From positions 21,879 through 85,878 of the forward strand of contig JAJZLY010000008.1 in NCBI GenBank assembly GCA_021850485.1: a stretch of 64,000 bases of DNA, read 5' to 3'. How positions within the stretch are numbered: the stretch's first letter is position 1; each line of letters starts with the position of its first letter. Below, piece by piece: positions 42,137-59,579 of this stretch. Made by a program: the position numbers and the translations under genes. This stretch comes from Bacillota bacterium (lineage in GTDB: Bacteria > Bacillota > Sulfobacillia > JAJZYS01 > JAJZLH01). The notes beneath the pieces were generated by a model. It had not been told where the DNA came from. It saw only the letters and a program-made list of their open reading frames with translations, and made no database searches.

Positions 42137-42775
42137 CTAGCCCGAGATGGCAGGAGATCCGCTCGGCAGCACCTTGAGGGTGATCCACATTCCGGCCGTT
42201 TCGTGGCCAGCGATCAGACAGGCGATCGCATACGTCCCGGCTGCTCCCGCCTTCCAACTAAAGCTGGCGCTGCTGCCGGGTGGCGTGCCGATGCCGCTGG
42301 TTGCGTTGGCGGTGGCGGCCGAGGCCGTGACCGGGGTCAGGGAGGTGGAGTTCGCCACCACCGCCGCCGAGTGAGGCAAAACGCCCTGATTTTGGAGCTT
42401 GACCGTCAGCGTCCAGCCAGTGGGCACGCTGACCACCATCTGTCCGTTCAGGGTGCCATCAAAATTGAACGGGGACGGTGAACTCTTCAGGCCAGCGATC
42501 AGCGAAAGGGTGACCGTCTTACTGGCCGTCGAAACGGTCAGGTACTTGGCCAAGGCCGAGCTGGCAGTTGGCGTCCCGGAACTGCCGCTGCCGCCGCTGG
42601 AAGTCGACGACGAAGCGGCCGGTGTGGACGTGGCCGGACTCGTAGCAGGGGTGGAGCTGGAGGAGGGCGGTGCTGGCGGGTAATACTGCTGACCGACCTC
42701 ATAGGTCGCTGCCGAGCCACAGCCGGCGACCACCGTCAAGGCGGCGAGCAGCGGGATGACAAGCCGAAGCCGCAT
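42137..42775 (-). CDS. Blue-copper (cupredoxin) lipoprotein
   Basis: Signal peptide with lipobox VAGC. Ser/Thr/Pro-rich linker. C-terminal cupredoxin domain with His (LPHSAAV) and a Cys-x4-His-x4-Met type-1 copper loop (YAIACLIAGHETAGMW). Confidence 0.7.
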   Translation of the reverse strand: MRLRLVIPLLAALTVVAGCGSAATYEVGQQYYPPAPPSSSSTPATSPATSTPAASSSTSSGGSGSSGTPTASSALAKYLTVSTASKTVTLSLIAGLKSSPSPFNFDGTLNGQMVVSVPTGWTLTVKLQNQGVLPHSAAVVANSTSLTPVTASAATANATSGIGTPPGSSASFSWKAGAAGTYAIACLIAGHETAGMWITLKVLPSGSPAISG

Positions 42776-42924: not shown

Positions 42925-45024
42925 GTGCCAACTCCAGCGCATCGGCTCACGATCTCGGACCTGATTCGATTCCCGCGGCCCGGCGCAAGCGGCCCACAGC
43001 AGATCTCGTTTTTGCCAGACGGTCAGGTGGCCTATCTCCTGCCCCGTTCGGAGAGCACCACCTTGGACCTGTGGTGTCACGACGGACACTCGGCGCACCG
43101 CTGGGCGCTGGCGCCTGAGGAAGGCAGCTACTCTCTGGCCGAGGAGTTGCGCCGCGAGCGCACCCGTTTCGCCTGGGACGGCATCACCAGCTATCAGGTG
43201 GCCCAGGATACCCTGCTTGCCTTTGCCGGTGGCAGCGCCTGGACTCAGACCTCAGATCAATCCCTGCGCAAGCTGACCGAGACCGCAGGGGGAAGTGGCC
43301 ACCTGCTGCTCCCAGACGGCCAGCAGATCATCTTCCACCGCGATGGCGAGCTCCATTTGCTGCGTCTTGCCGATGGCCAGCTCAGCACCTTGACCGCCGG
43401 CGGCGAAGAGGGGCTCAGTCACGGCGTGGCCGAGTTTGCGGCCCAAGAGGAGTTGGGCCGGCAAGACGGTTTCTGGGTCAGTCCGGACCTTCGCTGGCTG
43501 GCCTTTACCGAGGTCGATGAGCGGCACATACCGTTGTTTCCGATCGTGCACCAGGGTGCACAGGTGTGGACCGAGTCGCACCGCTATCCGTTTGTCGGTG
43601 CAGCCAATGCCAAGGTCAGGCTCGGCATCGTGCCGCTGGCTGGTGGTGCGGTGCGCTGGCAAGAGCTGCCCGATCAAGACGGATACCTGGCCCGGGCGGT
43701 GTGGAGTCCTGATGGTGAGTTCGCCTTTTTGGCGATCGATCGCCCGCAGCAGCACATGTCCTGGCAGCTGCTCGACCCAAAGACGGGCGGAGTGCGGATC
43801 TTGTTCGAGGACTCCGGCCAGCCCTGGCTGAATTTGCCGCAGGCGCTGACCTTCTTGCCCGGCGGCGGCTTTCTCACCACCAGCGAACGCAGTGGGTTCC
43901 GCCACCTCTACCTCGGTCAGAAGGACGGCAGCTTGCGCCAGCTGACCGACGGGCGGTGGATGGTCACCGATCTGGCCGGCATCACGGCCGCCGGCGATGT
44001 GGCCCTGATCGCCCACACCTGGAGCGACGGTTTGGATTTGCACCTGTCCGCCGTCTCCCTGACCAGCGGAGAGCGCACACAACTCACCCAGGGCTCAGGT
44101 CAGCACCACTGCACGGTCAGTCCGGACGGAAGCCGTTTTGTGGACTGCCATGATGACCTCTTGCATGCCCCGGTCGCTTCGCTCTGCACCACGACGGCCA
44201 AAAGTGGGCCAGTGCTCTTACACCAAGACGCTCTCGCCACCGCCGAGTCGTTACAGCTCACGCCACCGCAATTGGTGTCGGTGCCTGCGGCCGACGGCAG
44301 CCCGCTGTGGGGTGCCCTGTACCGACCGCCAGCCGCTGGCGCCACCAGCCGGTACCCACTGGTGGTCGCCGTCTACGGCGGGCCGCACGCCCAGCTGGTC
44401 AGCCGCAGGTGGGATCTGACCGTCAACCTGATGAGCCAATATCTGGCCCAAGAGGGCTTCTTTGTCCTCACCCTAGACGGGCGTGGCAGTTGGGGCCGGG
44501 GCCTGGCCCACGAGGCTGCGTTGAACCGGGCCTTTGGCACAGTCGAACTGGCCGATCAGGTGGCGGGTGTGCAATGGGTCTGTGCCCACGAGCCGGTCGA
44601 TCCGCAGCGGGTCGGCATCCACGGTTGGAGCTACGGCGGCTTCATGACCCTGACCGCCCTGCTCAAGGCCCCCGACATCTTCCGGGCCGGCGTGGCCGGG
44701 GCGCCAGTCACGGACTTTCGTCACTATGACACGGCATACACCGAGCGCTACATGGGCACCGACCAAGACAACCATGCCGGATACGAGGCGGCAGCACTGC
44801 CGCCTTTGGCCGACCGACTCAAGGGCGACCTCCTGATCATCCACGGCATGGTCGACGAGAACGTCCACTTCAGACACACAGCTCAGATGGCCGACGCCTT
44901 CATCCAAGCTGGGAAGTCGGTGGAACTGGCGATCTTGCCGTCGTCTCGGCACTCGGTGCGGCGACCAGAACTGCGGCGACTGGTCACAGAGAAAACCGTG
45001 GAGTTTTTCCGGCGGACCCTCTAG
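42925..45024 (+). CDS. S9 family serine peptidase (dipeptidyl aminopeptidase / acylaminoacyl peptidase-like) with N-terminal beta-propeller
   Basis: 699 aa. Catalytic GWSYGG nucleophile elbow, later Asp/His (IIHGMVDENVHFRH) and a long N-terminal propeller region. GTG start with GAGGAGG upstream. Confidence 0.85.
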   Translation: MPTPAHRLTISDLIRFPRPGASGPQQISFLPDGQVAYLLPRSESTTLDLWCHDGHSAHRWALAPEEGSYSLAEELRRERTRFAWDGITSYQVAQDTLLAFAGGSAWTQTSDQSLRKLTETAGGSGHLLLPDGQQIIFHRDGELHLLRLADGQLSTLTAGGEEGLSHGVAEFAAQEELGRQDGFWVSPDLRWLAFTEVDERHIPLFPIVHQGAQVWTESHRYPFVGAANAKVRLGIVPLAGGAVRWQELPDQDGYLARAVWSPDGEFAFLAIDRPQQHMSWQLLDPKTGGVRILFEDSGQPWLNLPQALTFLPGGGFLTTSERSGFRHLYLGQKDGSLRQLTDGRWMVTDLAGITAAGDVALIAHTWSDGLDLHLSAVSLTSGERTQLTQGSGQHHCTVSPDGSRFVDCHDDLLHAPVASLCTTTAKSGPVLLHQDALATAESLQLTPPQLVSVPAADGSPLWGALYRPPAAGATSRYPLVVAVYGGPHAQLVSRRWDLTVNLMSQYLAQEGFFVLTLDGRGSWGRGLAHEAALNRAFGTVELADQVAGVQWVCAHEPVDPQRVGIHGWSYGGFMTLTALLKAPDIFRAGVAGAPVTDFRHYDTAYTERYMGTDQDNHAGYEAAALPPLADRLKGDLLIIHGMVDENVHFRHTAQMADAFIQAGKSVELAILPSSRHSVRRPELRRLVTEKTVEFFRRTL

Positions 45025-45129
45025 GTGTGACCGAGGACCCATCGATCGCAATTCATACGAAACACAGACCAAGCTCTCAGAGAGTATTTGGTACATATCA
45101 GTCACGTCTGTTCGGTTGAATTCGCCTAT

Positions 45130-45151
45130 CGTTTCGGTTAAGATCGAAACG
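45130..45151. promoter_or_regulatory. Perfect 7-bp inverted repeat CGTTTCG-N8-CGAAACG overlapping the ribosome binding site of the HTH gene
   Basis: Read directly. The TTCGGTT(G/A)A motif also occurs twice as a direct repeat (45112-45121 and 45132-45141) in an AT-richer ~130-bp intergenic region. Candidate autoregulatory operator. Confidence 0.4.
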
Positions 45152-45155
45152 CGGG

Positions 45156-45776
45156 GTGATTCCAGTGCGGAAACTCGAATGGGTTTGGCGGGCGATCCTC
45201 TCGGATCCAACCACTTCCTTACACCAACAGACACTGGCCGAGCGTCTCCATCTCTCCCTTTCCACGGTCAATGCCGCGCTGCGCGTGCCGCGCCGGGCTG
45301 GTGCCATCGACGTTACGCACAGCGGCATTCATCTACGCGATCAGCACAAGCTGCTGACCATCTGGTCTGTCTTCCGCGATCTCAGAGCCGATACTGTGGC
45401 TGAGCTGCGGCTCGATGCCAGCGCCGAGGAAATTGAGGGGGACATGATCCCACAGGCTCGTTTTTCCGGGGCTTCGGCCTGCAAACTCCATCTCGGCATC
45501 GCCCCGGCTAACTATGACTCAGTGCTGGTGTACCTCAATCCATCGGATCTTCCGACTCTTCACAAGCGTTTCGCTGTCCGCCGGTCGATGGTGCGGACGG
45601 CCAGCCTGGTTCGGCCCGCGAACCTGATCGTCCTTCGTCCAGATCCCTACCTCCCCATCCTGGTGCCGCCATCACAGGTCTACGCTGATCTGTGGCAATT
45701 GCCAAACTGGTGGGCCACTGAGTTCTGGAAAGCCTTAGGGGAAGGGATGCAGGAGCATGTCAACGTTCTACCATGA
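45156..45776 (+). CDS. Winged-helix DNA-binding protein (putative regulator/antitoxin, AbiEi-like)
   Basis: 206 aa. N-terminal HTH segment (QQTLAERLHLSLSTVNAALRV). GC clearly lower than its neighbours. Overlaps the downstream nucleotidyltransferase gene by 20 nt. Confidence 0.55.
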   Translation: MIPVRKLEWVWRAILSDPTTSLHQQTLAERLHLSLSTVNAALRVPRRAGAIDVTHSGIHLRDQHKLLTIWSVFRDLRADTVAELRLDASAEEIEGDMIPQARFSGASACKLHLGIAPANYDSVLVYLNPSDLPTLHKRFAVRRSMVRTASLVRPANLIVLRPDPYLPILVPPSQVYADLWQLPNWWATEFWKALGEGMQEHVNVLP

Positions 45777-46356
45777 TGCCATCGTCGATCGCAGTTGGCG
45801 CACGTTACAGTCGCTGGCTCAAGAGTATGCCTTCACCCTGATCGGTGGCTGGGCCACTTGGCTCCACACTCGGGCAGCCAAGTCGACCGACATCGACATC
45901 ATCGTTGATTTCGATACATTGAGTCAGCTGCGCCAGCGATACGAGGTGCAAAAAAATGACCGGCTCAAGAAGTATGAGGTGCACGCCGACGGCTTCGATA
46001 TCGATATCTACCTGCCGTTTTACTCTACTACGCTGGCACTGCCGGCTGAAATCGTCACGCAACATGCCATGGTCGTCGACGGCTTCCAGGTTCCACCCGT
46101 GGAGTACCTGCTGGCCCTGAAGCTCGGTGCCTGGAACGATCGCCGCGCTTCCGCCAAAGGTCAAAAGGATCTGTTAGACATCCAAGGCCTGATCGCCCTC
46201 ACGACGCGATCTCGTCTGGACGATTGTCTGGACCATAGCGGCATTTCTGCAGCCGCCCGGTCCTCGCTCGAGAGTGCACTGACCAAGGCTCGCAAGGAGA
46301 TTCGCCTGGGAGCCCAGTGGCTACCCAGAGATCTTGACCGAAACTTCGACCGCTAA
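45757..46356 (+). CDS. Small nucleotidyltransferase-fold protein (AbiEii/MenT-like toxin or Lnu/ANT-like nucleotidyltransferase)
   Basis: 199 aa. Minimal nucleotidyltransferase signature LIGGWATWLH-x8-STDIDIIVDFD, which resembles LDGGWGVDVL...RDIDIDFD of lincosamide nucleotidyltransferases. Second acidic cluster ADGFDIDIYLP. Lower GC. Confidence 0.65.
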   Translation: MSTFYHDAIVDRSWRTLQSLAQEYAFTLIGGWATWLHTRAAKSTDIDIIVDFDTLSQLRQRYEVQKNDRLKKYEVHADGFDIDIYLPFYSTTLALPAEIVTQHAMVVDGFQVPPVEYLLALKLGAWNDRRASAKGQKDLLDIQGLIALTTRSRLDDCLDHSGISAAARSSLESALTKARKEIRLGAQWLPRDLDRNFDR

Positions 46357-46427
46357 GAGGCCAATCCCCATCGCCACCGCATCTCGGGCTGTCCGCAGTC
46401 AGCCCAGGCGCGAGCCTCATGTCTGAA

Positions 46428-47195
46428 TCAGGCCACCAGCCTTTGCTCAAAGGCTCGCCTGGGCACCCAGACCAGCACCACGGCGTAGCCGACCAGCCAC
46501 AACAAATTGATCAGCACCGGCAGGCCGATCTGTCCGAACAACAGTTCTCTGGTCAGTTGCACGGTGTGGTAGAGCGGCAAAAAGCGGACGAAGGTGGCCA
46601 ACGCCACCGGCAGTGTGTGTACCGGGAAGAAGACCCCGGAGATCATGAACATCGGCGTGATCACCAAGGTGAAGTAATAGAACAACTGCTCGTGGGTCTT
46701 CGCCCGGGCGGCCACCCACAGGGCCGGGGCAGTGAACAGCACGCCGGTCAGAATCAAGGGCACTGGCAAGGCCAGCGCCCACCAGGAGTGGACCAGGCCG
46801 AACGCCGCCACAAACAGGAAGAAGATCGCTCCATAGAGCAAACTGCGGCACATCTCCCACAGATATTCGCCAGCCAGGATGTCGCGCACCGTCAGCGGCG
46901 AGGTGATCATCGCCTGATAGACACCGTTCGAGTTCAGCTTGTCGTAGGTCTCGAAGCCAGCGTCAAAGGTGACCGCGTTCATCGCCGTCACCGCCAGCAG
47001 GCCAGGGGCAATGAACTGGAAGAAGGACATCCCGTCCATCCGCGCCACATAGGCGCCTAGGCCTAAGCCCAGTGCCAGCAGGTTGGTGATCGGCTCACCG
47101 AAGTTCAAGAGCAACGACGACCGGTAGTACTTGCGCCAGGCCCAAAAATTGCGCATCCAGACAGCGGACGCACCGCGCCACAGACCAGGTCTCAT
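46428..47195 (-). CDS. ABC-2 type transporter permease
   Basis: 255 aa. Six TM helices and ABC-2 family organisation. Coupled to the upstream ATPase gene. Confidence 0.8.
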   Translation of the reverse strand: MRPGLWRGASAVWMRNFWAWRKYYRSSLLLNFGEPITNLLALGLGLGAYVARMDGMSFFQFIAPGLLAVTAMNAVTFDAGFETYDKLNSNGVYQAMITSPLTVRDILAGEYLWEMCRSLLYGAIFFLFVAAFGLVHSWWALALPVPLILTGVLFTAPALWVAARAKTHEQLFYYFTLVITPMFMISGVFFPVHTLPVALATFVRFLPLYHTVQLTRELLFGQIGLPVLINLLWLVGYAVVLVWVPRRAFEQRLVA

Positions 47196-59394: not shown

Positions 59395-59560
59395 CCTGCA
59401 CACGCAGGTCGCCTGGGCGGTGATGTCCAGCCTGTCCCGTCCGTCGCCGGCCGGATTTCTGGGCACCTATCGGAACCGCCATACCGCGGGGTATCCGCCG
59501 AATTCTTCGATAAACCCCGACCTCGTCCACTCGCTCGGCGAGTGCAGGCGCTTGAAAGAA
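59395..59560 (-). ncRNA. glmS ribozyme: glmS ribozyme (GlcN6P-responsive self-cleaving riboswitch) in the glmS 5' UTR
   Basis: The minus-strand transcript reads ...CAAGCGCC-UGCACUCGCCGAGCGAGUG-GACGAGGUCGGGGUUUAUCGAAGAAUUCGGCGGAUACCCCGCGG.... This matches the glmS ribozyme core consensus A^GCGCC...GACGAGGAUGGAGGUUAUCGAAUUUUCGGCGGAUGCCUCCCGG. It sits immediately upstream of the glmS ATG. Confidence 0.85.
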
Positions 59561-59579
59561 GGATGATCGGACTTGGCTC

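Follow-up and report, generated by a model that had tools for sequence, protein, structure and literature searches.

What is encoded by a pair of overlapping genes that occupies a compositionally foreign islet in the genome of a Sulfobacillus-like bacterium? The pair lies at positions 45025–46427 of a 64,000-nt stretch of contig JAJZLY010000008.1 (assembly GCA_021850485.1; the whole stretch is hereafter the window) and comprises the gene for a winged-helix protein (the partner) followed by the gene for a 199-amino-acid nucleotidyltransferase (the enzyme). An earlier note, made from the letters of the window, had described two such genes behind a perfect inverted repeat, and our analysis bears this out: both open reading frames (ORFs), an overlap of 20 nt on the same strand, the palindrome and the enzyme peptides LIGGWATWLH, STDIDIIVDFD and GFDIDIYLP are all present. 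Sequence comparison and analogy with known systems suggest that the module is most likely an autorepressed toxin–antitoxin or abortive-infection operon of the AbiE/MenAT kind with a new family of antitoxin, and we consider it fairly probable that the pair is a toxin–antitoxin-type module whose toxin is MenT-like. The gene structure, the conservation of fold and motifs, the strict pairing of the two genes in a variable genomic context, and the conservation and geometry of the operator are direct observations.

The enzyme belongs to a family of more than 387 homologues of about 200 amino acids, all unnamed and mostly from Patescibacteria (candidate phyla radiation) and DPANN archaea. In an alignment of 30 diverse members, G30, G31, W32, S43, D45, N67, R69, L70, K72, Y73, D83, Y85, S90, L118, L121, K122, R129, G135, K137, D138 and D141 are invariant and D47 is conserved in at least 90% of sequences. 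All four nucleotidyltransferase motifs are represented: motif I (hG[GS]) and motif II ([DE]h[DE]h) in L-I-G30-G31-W and S43-T-D45-I-D47-I, which align with GGF…T39-R-D41-V-D43 of MenT1 from Mycobacterium tuberculosis; motif III (h[DE]h) at the invariant D83 within DIDIY; and motif IV (K…[RK]D..D) through K122, R129, K137, D138 and D141 in LKLGAW..R…KGxKDllD, a segment that also aligns, in comparisons that are themselves weak, with motif IV of canonical AbiEii. Motif IV has been described as unique to DUF1814 proteins (PMC11375011; bioRxiv 10.64898/2026.01.19.700257). The family has in addition a motif of its own, KNDRLKKYE at residues 66–74, which is not among the motifs described in the MenT papers cited here.

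An AlphaFold2 model of the enzyme (predicted local distance difference test score (pLDDT) 93.7, predicted template-modelling score 0.90) has the MenT-type fold, with a nucleotidyltransferase core and a C-terminal helical domain. Foldseek comparison with the PDB returned the fungal protein Pb27 at the top (5uvd, expectation value (E) = 3e-6), MenT1 alone or with MenA1 (8an4 and 8an5, E = 6e-6 to 5e-5, template-modelling (TM) score 0.53–0.58), then JHP933 (E = 3e-4), LnuA (E = 1.6e-3), ANT(2'')-Ia (E = 2e-3) and TM1012 (E about 2e-3). A PDB sequence search with the single enzyme sequence gave no match, and the family profile picks up 5uvd and MenT1 by sequence, weakly. Alignment of hidden Markov models (HMMs) pairs S43, D45, D47, K122 and D141 with T39, D41, D43, K137 and D152 of MenT1 (PDB chain numbering is offset by one from that of the paper), and this mapping is credible because the fold match supports the weak alignment, which would not suffice alone. 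MenT1 D41, K137 and D152 are needed for toxicity (PMC10435456), and T39 is the auto-phosphorylation site by which MenA1 turns the toxin off (PMC11375011), a role also held by S78 of MenT3 and T65 of AbiEii (PMC11375011; bioRxiv 10.64898/2026.01.19.700257). The enzyme family has a candidate Ser/Thr acceptor at this position, two residues before the first catalytic Asp, in the form of the invariant S43, which aligns as well with the serine of RFSEDLDF in the canonical AbiEii proteins of three family loci (L042, L065 and L086). Pb27, MenT1 and JHP933 have been named members of the DUF1814 superfamily (bioRxiv 10.64898/2026.01.19.700257), and by sequence and predicted structure the enzyme is a compact member of the DUF1814/DUF6036 superfamily with MenT1 as its closest characterised relative. 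Recurrent weak Pfam matches, the fold match and the invariant residues aligned with MenT1 agree with the earlier proposal of an AbiEii/MenT-type nucleotidyltransferase; neither protein of the pair has the canonical AbiEii length, as also proposed, but MenT1 is a characterised relative of 196 amino acids.

Profile searches place the enzyme family at the edge of existing models. The window enzyme scores 19.3 bits against DUF6036 (PF19502; gathering score 23.6, E = 0.001, residues 10–66) and 15.4 bits against AbiEii (PF08843; gathering score 22.5, E = 0.019, residues 97–167), and thus falls below threshold for each. Among the 30 aligned members, DUF6036 matches 23 and AbiEii 17 at sub-threshold values (E < 1; best E = 8.6e-7 and 8.4e-7, respectively), and about one fifth of the homologues carry a precomputed PF19502 mark, the family straddling the edge of that model. 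PADLOC AbiEii models match the family weakly, NCBIfam has no match for the enzyme, and we found no paper mentioning DUF6036 in the literature searched. Membership of the PADLOC family PDC-S09 was considered and rejected, its matches being confined to 3 of the 30 members (E ≥ 0.0017) and to the N-terminal 50 residues. Weak matches to Aminoglyc_resit occur in 13 of the 30 (best E = 0.0023).

These last matches bear on an alternative that the earlier note had raised from the likeness to Lnu and ANT enzymes, namely a regulated antibiotic-modifying enzyme. On this view the enzyme would adenylylate a small molecule or antibiotic, as ANT(2'')-Ia and Lnu do, and the partner would be a ligand-sensing repressor whose C-terminal domain binds the inducer. 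Foldseek does return LnuA, ANT(2'')-Ia and TM1012, and ANT(2'')-Ia has been counted in the DUF1814 superfamily (bioRxiv 10.64898/2026.01.19.700257). A winged helix joined to a potentially ligand-binding α/β domain, as modelled for the partner, is moreover a common repressor layout. Nevertheless, MenT1 and Pb27 match 100- to 1000-fold more strongly than the resistance enzymes do, identity to LnuA and ANT(2'')-Ia is 11–15%, and the enzyme shows a superfamily-level likeness to these proteins rather than ANT/Lnu membership by profile or fold. The invariant S43 position and the K…KD..D of the fourth motif are features of the toxin branch, the C-terminal domain of the partner matches no known ligand-binding family, and it is difficult to see how a family concentrated in Patescibacteria and DPANN archaea could have come under one aminoglycoside or lincosamide selection in the two domains. 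The partner gene is also obligatory, whereas known ant and lnu genes are, to our knowledge, stand-alone cassettes with no obligatory partner. We regard this alternative as very unlikely, and weaker than the toxin reading, although the fold by itself does not separate the two.

The partner protein resembles known families in its winged helix. Family matches are confined to the N-terminal 70 residues and name Crp-like, HTH_24, GntR and MarR winged helices (HTH_Crp_2 and HTH_24 at residues 21–67), and NCBIfam has no match for the protein. In the AlphaFold2 model (pLDDT 88), residues 1–73 form a winged helix; a β-α-β-α-β-α-β domain comes next, and two helices close the chain. Foldseek with this full-length model gave nothing below E = 1e-3 and no relative for the C-terminal domain; Rv2827c/MenA4 (1zel) ranked eighth (E = 0.016, TM 0.21) and AbiEi 6Y8Q fell outside the top 50. 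The earlier note had described a 206-residue protein with an N-terminal winged helix and likened the architecture of the pair to AbiEi/AbiEii and MenA/MenT. Pfam and the model agree on the winged helix, and the length is probably 203 residues, with the GTG at 45165 as the true start, a choice favoured by the family alignment, by the ATG of a sister genome and by one NCBI gene model (203 amino acids). An assignment of the partner to AbiEi finds no support. AbiEi Pfam models are absent from the 25 most frequent of the 69 families matched by 34 partner members, and PADLOC AbiEi models match 2 of the 34 at E = 0.016 (overall E about 0.02–0.05), sub-threshold matches of which one, individually mapped (L020, E about 0.04), covers the winged helix only. 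A comparison of the partner family with canonical AbiEi by hhalign gave a probability of 0.1%, in a weak test whose template held only three sequences. By sequence, the partner is not detectably AbiEi, though it is like AbiEi in size and layout. A HMMER scan of 1.84 billion representative proteins found 348 partner clusters at E ≤ 1e-3 and 234 at E ≤ 1e-10, nearly all of 190–210 amino acids or shorter fragments with a few at 246–290, and listed no protein long enough to be a fusion of the partner with a full-length enzyme; the partner is, on these comparisons, a sharply bounded family of its own.

The topology of the partner also raises, by analogy with CD-NTase and CARF/Csa3 systems, a signalling module in which the nucleotidyltransferase would make a nucleotide second messenger and the α/β domain of the partner would sense it. 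Weak PADLOC matches of the partner to Csa3 and CARF-HTH models, distant Foldseek matches of the enzyme to CdnE and CdnD, and the Rossmann-like β-α-β topology of the modelled C-terminal domain are consistent with this idea. The Csa3, CARF3 and CasR matches lie, however, in the winged helix and not in the α/β domain, ending by about residue 72 with one exception (Csa3 at residues 8–99 in L047), and we rejected Csa3/CARF as a lead for the partner. The CD-NTase matches have E > 0.01 and TM below 0.3, known CD-NTases are much larger proteins than the enzyme, and the residues that the enzyme family conserves are those of the MenT pattern, all of which makes a signalling role extremely improbable.

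A scan of one genome per species across 185,579 species genomes confirmed at least 500 loci, and pairing and taxonomy were counted in the best 80 of these. In 80/80 loci from other species the enzyme gene is immediately preceded, on its own strand, by a partner homologue (phmmer E = 8e-14 to 3e-54 against the window partner), eight loci flagged as having no adjacent partner being artefacts of the longest-ORF start rule. The commonest gene spacings are −4, −17 and −20 nt, and pairs that do not overlap are usually a few nucleotides apart. About 47 of these loci are from Patescibacteria, 20 from archaea, 6 from Bacillota (including Ammonifex thiophilus) and 1 from Elusimicrobia; the archaeal carriers are Micrarchaeota, Iainarchaeia, Woesearchaeota, Nanoarchaeota, Methanomethylicota, Thermoproteota, Thermococcaceae and Thermoplasmata. 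No conserved third gene stands beside the pair, the largest flanking family (AAA_14-DUF4143 ATPases) occurring at 7 of 82 loci. The most frequent Pfam families among 124 immediate neighbours are MNT-type nucleotidyltransferases (4), PIN (4), AbiEii (3), DUF4143 (3), HepT (2) and Fic (2), the remainder being unrelated housekeeping genes; these raw counts are no more than suggestive of an enrichment in toxin–antitoxin and defence genes. At three Patescibacteria loci, canonical AbiEi/AbiEii pairs are found no more than about 3 kb away, two of them (L042 and L086) confirmed by Pfam AbiEii (E = 4e-25 and 8e-21), and because these pairs adjoin the new pair, the two systems coexist and neither replaces the other. 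By comparison across genomes, the pair is a mobile two-gene cassette with the linkage generally taken to mark toxin–antitoxin genes. According to a recent survey, AbiE and candidate systems of uncharacterised function are over-represented in DPANN archaea and Patescibacteria, which fits the distribution seen here, but the pair is not described in that survey (PMC12988326).

Two further relatives of the enzyme were seen. A 1.32-Mb replicon of Rhizobium leguminosarum (NZ_CP140867.1:157721-158026) gave the only match to the enzyme in a plasmid collection, of 32% identity over enzyme residues 40–142 (E = 1e-7) in a record that carries no annotation; it may represent a more distant proteobacterial branch of the family. 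A Eubacteriales MAG (metagenome-assembled genome) carries a second, shorter nucleotidyltransferase-like ORF (L009:594-1055), which matches the window enzyme at phmmer E = 5e-10. It precedes the partner gene of the regular pair (mechanical ORF from 1432, inferred start 1657) by about 400–600 nt and has no adjacent partner gene of its own.

The palindrome upstream of the partner gene, CGTTTCG-N8-CGAAACG, is unique in the window even when two mismatches are allowed (0.16 expected) and recurs across the family. Upstream sequence was long enough for this comparison at 79 independent loci, and in 66 of them TTCK-N8-MGAA is found no more than 150 nt before the partner gene, at 61-fold the rate in the remaining 541 kb of the same loci, with positions clustering at −32 or about −50 from the start codon. 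When bacterial loci are aligned on the palindrome, TTGACA appears at a fixed upstream distance and the spacer reads TAnnAT (TATAAT, TATCAT, TAATAT); the palindrome therefore brackets the −10 hexamer in bacterial loci. The window matches the '−32' class of bacterial loci exactly (TTGAAT, 17 nt, TAAGAT), its TTGAAT standing as far from the palindrome as the canonical TTGACA does at about 40 bacterial loci of the family. The palindrome had been placed over the ribosome binding site; it instead brackets the −10-like TAAGAT and merely abuts GGGGTGA, ending 1 nt before it. Counted from the start of the right arm, a further MGAA half-site is met at +31 nt in 41 of the 66 loci and at +32 nt in another 12 (53/66). 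This spacing does not depend on the distance to the start codon, be it 32 or 124 nt, and since 31 bp corresponds to three helical turns, all three half-sites lie on the same face of the DNA.

The archaeal loci seat the same operator on a different core promoter element. At L018, L032, L047, L049, L054, L061, L071, L072, L075 and L077, a TTTATAAATA-type TATA box lies 2–4 nt past the right arm with the start codon about 27 nt further, and only 0–2 nt separate the end of the third half-site from the ATG, so that the operator stands on both sides of the TATA box; by sequence this layout implies leaderless mRNAs. Conservation is also high between distant bacteria, as Ammonifex thiophilus has CCTTCGTTTCG-N8-CGAAACGAAGG before its partner gene, with the same CGTTTCG-N8-CGAAACG core although the proteins are only 50% identical. 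The module of this cultured thermophilic member of the Bacillota (strain SR, L012:3348-4585, NZ_QSLN01000011.1) has palindrome arms of 11 nt.

Operator arms are G/C-symmetric in 26 of the 66 loci, T/A-symmetric in 22 and mixed, hence unable to pair, in 18; arms with G on one side and A on the other were counted in 17 of the 66. Recognition by a protein dimer is favoured because the arms are often non-complementary and sequence, not pairing, is conserved, and we predict that the palindrome is a protein-binding operator that serves in repression. A reading of the palindrome as an RNA hairpin was rejected on the same grounds (18/66 arms are unpairable) and because transcription is inferred to begin downstream of the left arm. 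The autoregulated toxin–antitoxin architecture proposed in the earlier note gains from these results: gene order, overlap and palindrome fit it, and the palindrome is conserved across phyla and both domains, which is the strongest of the new evidence.

Two repeats near the operator deserve separate mention. The duplicated TTCGGTT(G/A)A motif previously described is present in both copies, and the significance of the upstream copy is uncertain; an upstream half-site is not conserved across the family, the best offset being found in 5 of the 66 loci. A TTCK half-site 31 nt upstream of the left arm was seen in 5/66 loci. A 15-nt segment in the last codons of the enzyme gene is an imperfect reverse complement of the left arm and spacer of the operator; on a rough estimate, a pair of this quality should arise by chance about 0.05–0.1 times per 1.5 kb. 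It has no equivalent in 5 of 6 other loci, the sixth (L035) holding a weaker pair of 20 nt and 75% identity between the promoter region and an internal part of the enzyme gene, and the sister genome described below keeps the 3' copy although its operator differs. Terminal repeats or a looping site were therefore rejected as a general explanation, the repeat being not clearly reproduced and not co-varying with the sister operator; it is probably due to chance or coding constraint.

The base composition of the islet and its presence in a related genome speak to its origin. The segment 45025–46427 has a G+C content (GC) of 57.9% against a window mean of 64.9% (standard deviation 2.0 in 1.4-kb windows), within the lowest 0.6% of 1.4-kb windows of the 64 kb, and GC at third codon positions is 0.67 and 0.68 in the two genes compared with 0.76–0.84 in neighbouring genes. 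The islet is compositionally foreign, and the lower GC noted before is real, with a contrast of 58 versus 65 rather than mid-50s versus 68. A sister MAG (GCA_027420395.1) carries the pair at the same site, in the order peptidase, pair, BNR-repeat gene, ABC-2 gene, with the same 20-nt overlap and again at lower GC (63.9% versus about 70% in the flanks). Identity between the two genomes is 55% for the partner and 66% for the enzyme, compared with 64–91% for flanking genes. Because the sister MAG holds a pair of this identity at the same site, the insertion is not recent; by this comparison the module was acquired before the two lineages split. The sister operator has drifted to GAATCG-N8-CGAATC, with a matching ATCGAAT half-site just within the first codons, a change that accompanies the 45% divergence of the partner protein. 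Acquisition by horizontal transfer, as first suggested, is supported because the composition is foreign and the cross-domain distribution is patchy. The sister genome also has, between the pair and the ABC-2 gene, a 371-amino-acid BNR/Asp-box repeat gene that the window lacks (L004:6748-7863); since it is found in the sister only, this intergenic site is a recurrent point of gene gain or loss.

Several observations weigh against a toxin–antitoxin module. Every homologue in either family is annotated as hypothetical. The enzyme is below the Pfam gathering score for both AbiEii and DUF6036, the sequence alignment that maps its catalytic residues onto MenT1 is weak (E = 1.6), and hhalign of the enzyme family with three canonical AbiEii sequences was not significant in what is a weak test with a small template. 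The partner has no detectable similarity to known antitoxins beyond a generic winged helix. The −35 and −10 hexamers of the window are weak (8/12 positions), and a consensus promoter scan did not call them. We did not find the module in 50,697 phage records or in IMG/VR viral contigs, and a plasmid search gave one remote match only, leaving it without a mobile-element context that would suggest addiction or defence. The pair is, finally, kept at one chromosomal site in two Sulfobacillus-like species, which fits a non-toxic regulated enzyme equally well.

Such an enzyme could act in RNA 3'-end tailing or repair or in nucleotidylylation of a protein, possibly the partner, and would be served by a dedicated transcription factor. 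Retention at one site with a divergence like that of flanking housekeeping genes (55–66% versus 64–91%), absence from phage and viral collections, with a single remote plasmid match, and abundance in reduced genomes, which tend to keep useful genes, all suit this explanation, and overexpressed MenT2 has no detectable toxicity (PMC10435456). On the other side stand a patchy distribution (at least 500 matches among 185,579 species genomes of both domains) in ever-changing neighbourhoods, which is the signature of a selfish or defence element, toxin–antitoxin genes among the neighbours, the foreign composition of the islet, and the overlap with the DNA-binding partner encoded first, which is the classic toxin–antitoxin layout. 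We judge a non-toxic cellular function unlikely and retain the toxin–antitoxin operon as the preferred reading.

If the pair is a toxin–antitoxin operon, its parts suggest the following mechanism. A σ70-type promoter (TTGAAT, 17 nt, TAAGAT) would drive both genes, and the 20-nt overlap would couple their translation. The partner, of about 203 amino acids, would dimerise and bind CGTTTCG-N8-CGAAACG through its winged helix, and the operon would be shut off by this binding because the palindrome brackets the −10 hexamer; the bound partner would block RNA polymerase or, in archaea, access of TATA-binding protein (TBP) and transcription factor B (TFB) and the start of transcription. The half-site at +31, on the same helix face, probably recruits a further subunit. 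The orphan α/β C-terminal domain of the partner may bind and neutralise the enzyme, a polymerase-β-type nucleotidyltransferase of 199 residues with the MenT1 fold that, when free, would transfer nucleotides in the manner of MenT to the ends of tRNA or of another RNA and stop translation. Neutralisation possibly proceeds by antitoxin-induced auto-phosphorylation at S43 (type VII), the most economical model because S43 is invariant and occupies the position of MenT1 T39 and MenT3 S78. Toxicity, the tRNA target, DNA binding and repression, neutralisation and phosphorylation are all proposed here from homology and comparative anatomy, and the specific target and the phospho-switch are less certain than the toxin–antitoxin reading. 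Joined into a single proposal, in which an antitoxin of new fold (winged helix plus orphan α/β domain) silences a minimal MenT-type tRNA nucleotidyltransferase by S43 auto-phosphorylation, the pair forms a major AbiE-like module of Patescibacteria and DPANN archaea, and its three-half-site operator was carried across the bacteria–archaea boundary and re-seated on the σ70 −10 element versus the TATA box and start, these parts make a tentative picture that we would not expect to hold in full.

A nucleotidyltransferase toxin with a DNA-binding antitoxin encoded first is already a known kind of system, and the closest characterised example is MenA1–MenT1 (Rv0078B–Rv0078A; PDB 8AN4, 8AN5, 8RR5). 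Both operons are bicistronic with the antitoxin gene first, and both toxins have a compact nucleotidyltransferase fold (196 versus 199 amino acids) with aligned catalytic and phospho-acceptor positions (PMC10435456, PMC11375011), MenT1 ranking just behind the uncharacterised Pb27 among solved structures. The toxins differ in sequence, at an identity of only 17–19% and with an HMM match that alone is not significant. MenT1 shows no toxicity in Escherichia coli. The antitoxins differ more deeply, as MenA1 touches MenT1 by a single extended α-helix in a 1:2 heterotrimer (PMC10435456, PMC11375011) and the window partner is a winged-helix plus α/β protein of roughly 200 amino acids. In layout the pair is closer to AbiE, whose first gene encodes an antitoxin of about 200 amino acids with an N-terminal winged helix and a C-terminal neutralising domain and whose operon is autoregulated at inverted repeats (bioRxiv 10.64898/2026.01.19.700257; PMC11375011). 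The operon layout with a four-motif nucleotidyltransferase second is common to AbiEi–AbiEii of Streptococcus agalactiae and Lactococcus pNP40 (PF13338, PF08843), to MenA3/MenT3 and to MenA4/MenT4; the window enzyme is about 60–100 amino acids shorter than these toxins and below the PF08843 threshold, and its partner has no AbiEi signal. The AbiE operator consists of two 23-bp inverted repeats, unlike the single 7-N8-7 palindrome with a half-site at +31 seen here. AbiE, which the earlier note had called a type IV system, has since been proposed as type VII (bioRxiv 10.64898/2026.01.19.700257).

Two other groups resemble the enzyme by itself. DUF6036 (PF19502, 'nucleotidyltransferase of unknown function') is the best Pfam match of the family, but only the N-terminal 60 residues of the window enzyme align with it, and neither a function nor a partner has been described for it. 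In both structural and profile searches, the first or nearly first places go to Pb27 of Paracoccidioides brasiliensis (5UVD) and JHP933 of Helicobacter pylori (4O8S), at 14–17% identity. The biochemical function of these two is itself uncertain; we know of no winged-helix partner or operator described for either.

What appears to be undescribed is the family of the partner, the pairing of the compact enzymes, for which Pfam has a DUF only, into a module, the dominance of the module in ultra-small bacteria and archaea, and a three-site operator that spans both domains on differing core promoter elements. Few defence or toxin–antitoxin systems are as common as those with DUF1814 nucleotidyltransferase toxins (AbiE, MenAT), and MenT toxins are paired with three unrelated antitoxin families that may converge on induced auto-phosphorylation (PMC10435456, PMC11375011). 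The window pair, if the toxin–antitoxin reading is right, would bring the partner types of MenT-like toxins to four, would be the second case of a toxin that is compact by nature, and would test the generality of that mechanism. The carriers of its family are mostly Patescibacteria and DPANN archaea, groups in which little is known of defence and dormancy, and an operator common to bacteria and archaea on different core promoter elements would be a rare natural move of a repressor together with its site between transcription systems. Experiments are feasible because the cultured Ammonifex thiophilus and a Sulfobacillus-like lineage carry the module, Ammonifex being a convenient source.

Table 1. 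Features of the islet and of related loci. Positions without a prefix are those of the window; prefixed positions are those of the named family locus.
Feature	Position	Strand	Remarks
Putative −35 hexamer TTGAAT	45116..45121	+	17 nt upstream of TAAGAT; proposed by homology
Upstream copy of TTCGGTTGA	45112..45120	+	Repeats left arm and start of spacer; overlaps −35 hexamer
Second copy of the TTCGGTT(G/A)A motif	45133..45141
Palindromic operator CGTTTCG-GTTAAGAT-CGAAACG	45130..45151	.	Perfect 7-N8-7; proposed site for winged-helix dimer
Putative −10 hexamer TAAGAT	45139..45144	+	Within the 8-nt palindrome spacer; proposed by homology
Ribosome binding site GGGGTGA	45153..45159	+	Read from sequence; 5 nt before GTG 45165
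Mechanical ORF of partner gene	45156–45776	+	GTG start, 206 amino acids; from ORF list
Partner gene (winged-helix + α/β domain; putative antitoxin/autorepressor)	45165..45776	+	203 amino acids from GTG 45165
Third half-site CTCGAAT	45174..45180	+	CGAA core 45176–45179, codons 4–6 from GTG 45165; at +31
Enzyme gene (compact MenT1/AbiEii-like nucleotidyltransferase; putative toxin)	45757..46356	+	ATG start, 199 amino acids
GATCTTGACCGAAAC	46330..46344	.	14/15 reverse complement of operator 45131–45145; last codons of enzyme gene (…DLDRNFDR)
Nearby canonical AbiE pairs	L042:598-1952, L086:754-2186, L065:4819-5743, L065:124-855

The pair is flanked on the 5' side by an S9/DPPIV peptidase gene ending at 45024 and on the 3' side by a convergent ABC-2 permease gene with its stop at 46428, followed by an ATPase gene; these assignments, which agree with the earlier description of the flanks, rest on Pfam marks read from the identical public contig of MAG GCA_027420295.1. 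A leader of 131 nt precedes the mechanical ORF of the partner gene, and the sister locus has GGGG at the position of the ribosome binding site of the window. No terminator was found 3' of the operon. Signs of an insertion mechanism were also absent: the surrounding 38–54 kb hold no tRNA gene, and the flanks show no direct repeats resembling target-site duplications. NCBI annotates members of the same 90% protein cluster as Sulfobacillus sp., and the host is a Sulfobacillus-like MAG. A full-length glmS ribozyme/riboswitch at 59412-59563 on the minus strand (RF00234, 82 bits, E = 2e-17), the sole Rfam family at its gathering score in the window, fits a Bacillota-type host. Two genes upstream of the islet, at 42137-42775 on the minus strand, a gene for a SoxE/sulfocyanin-like cupredoxin with a Ser/Thr/Pro-rich linker fits an acidophilic host of the Sulfobacillus type.

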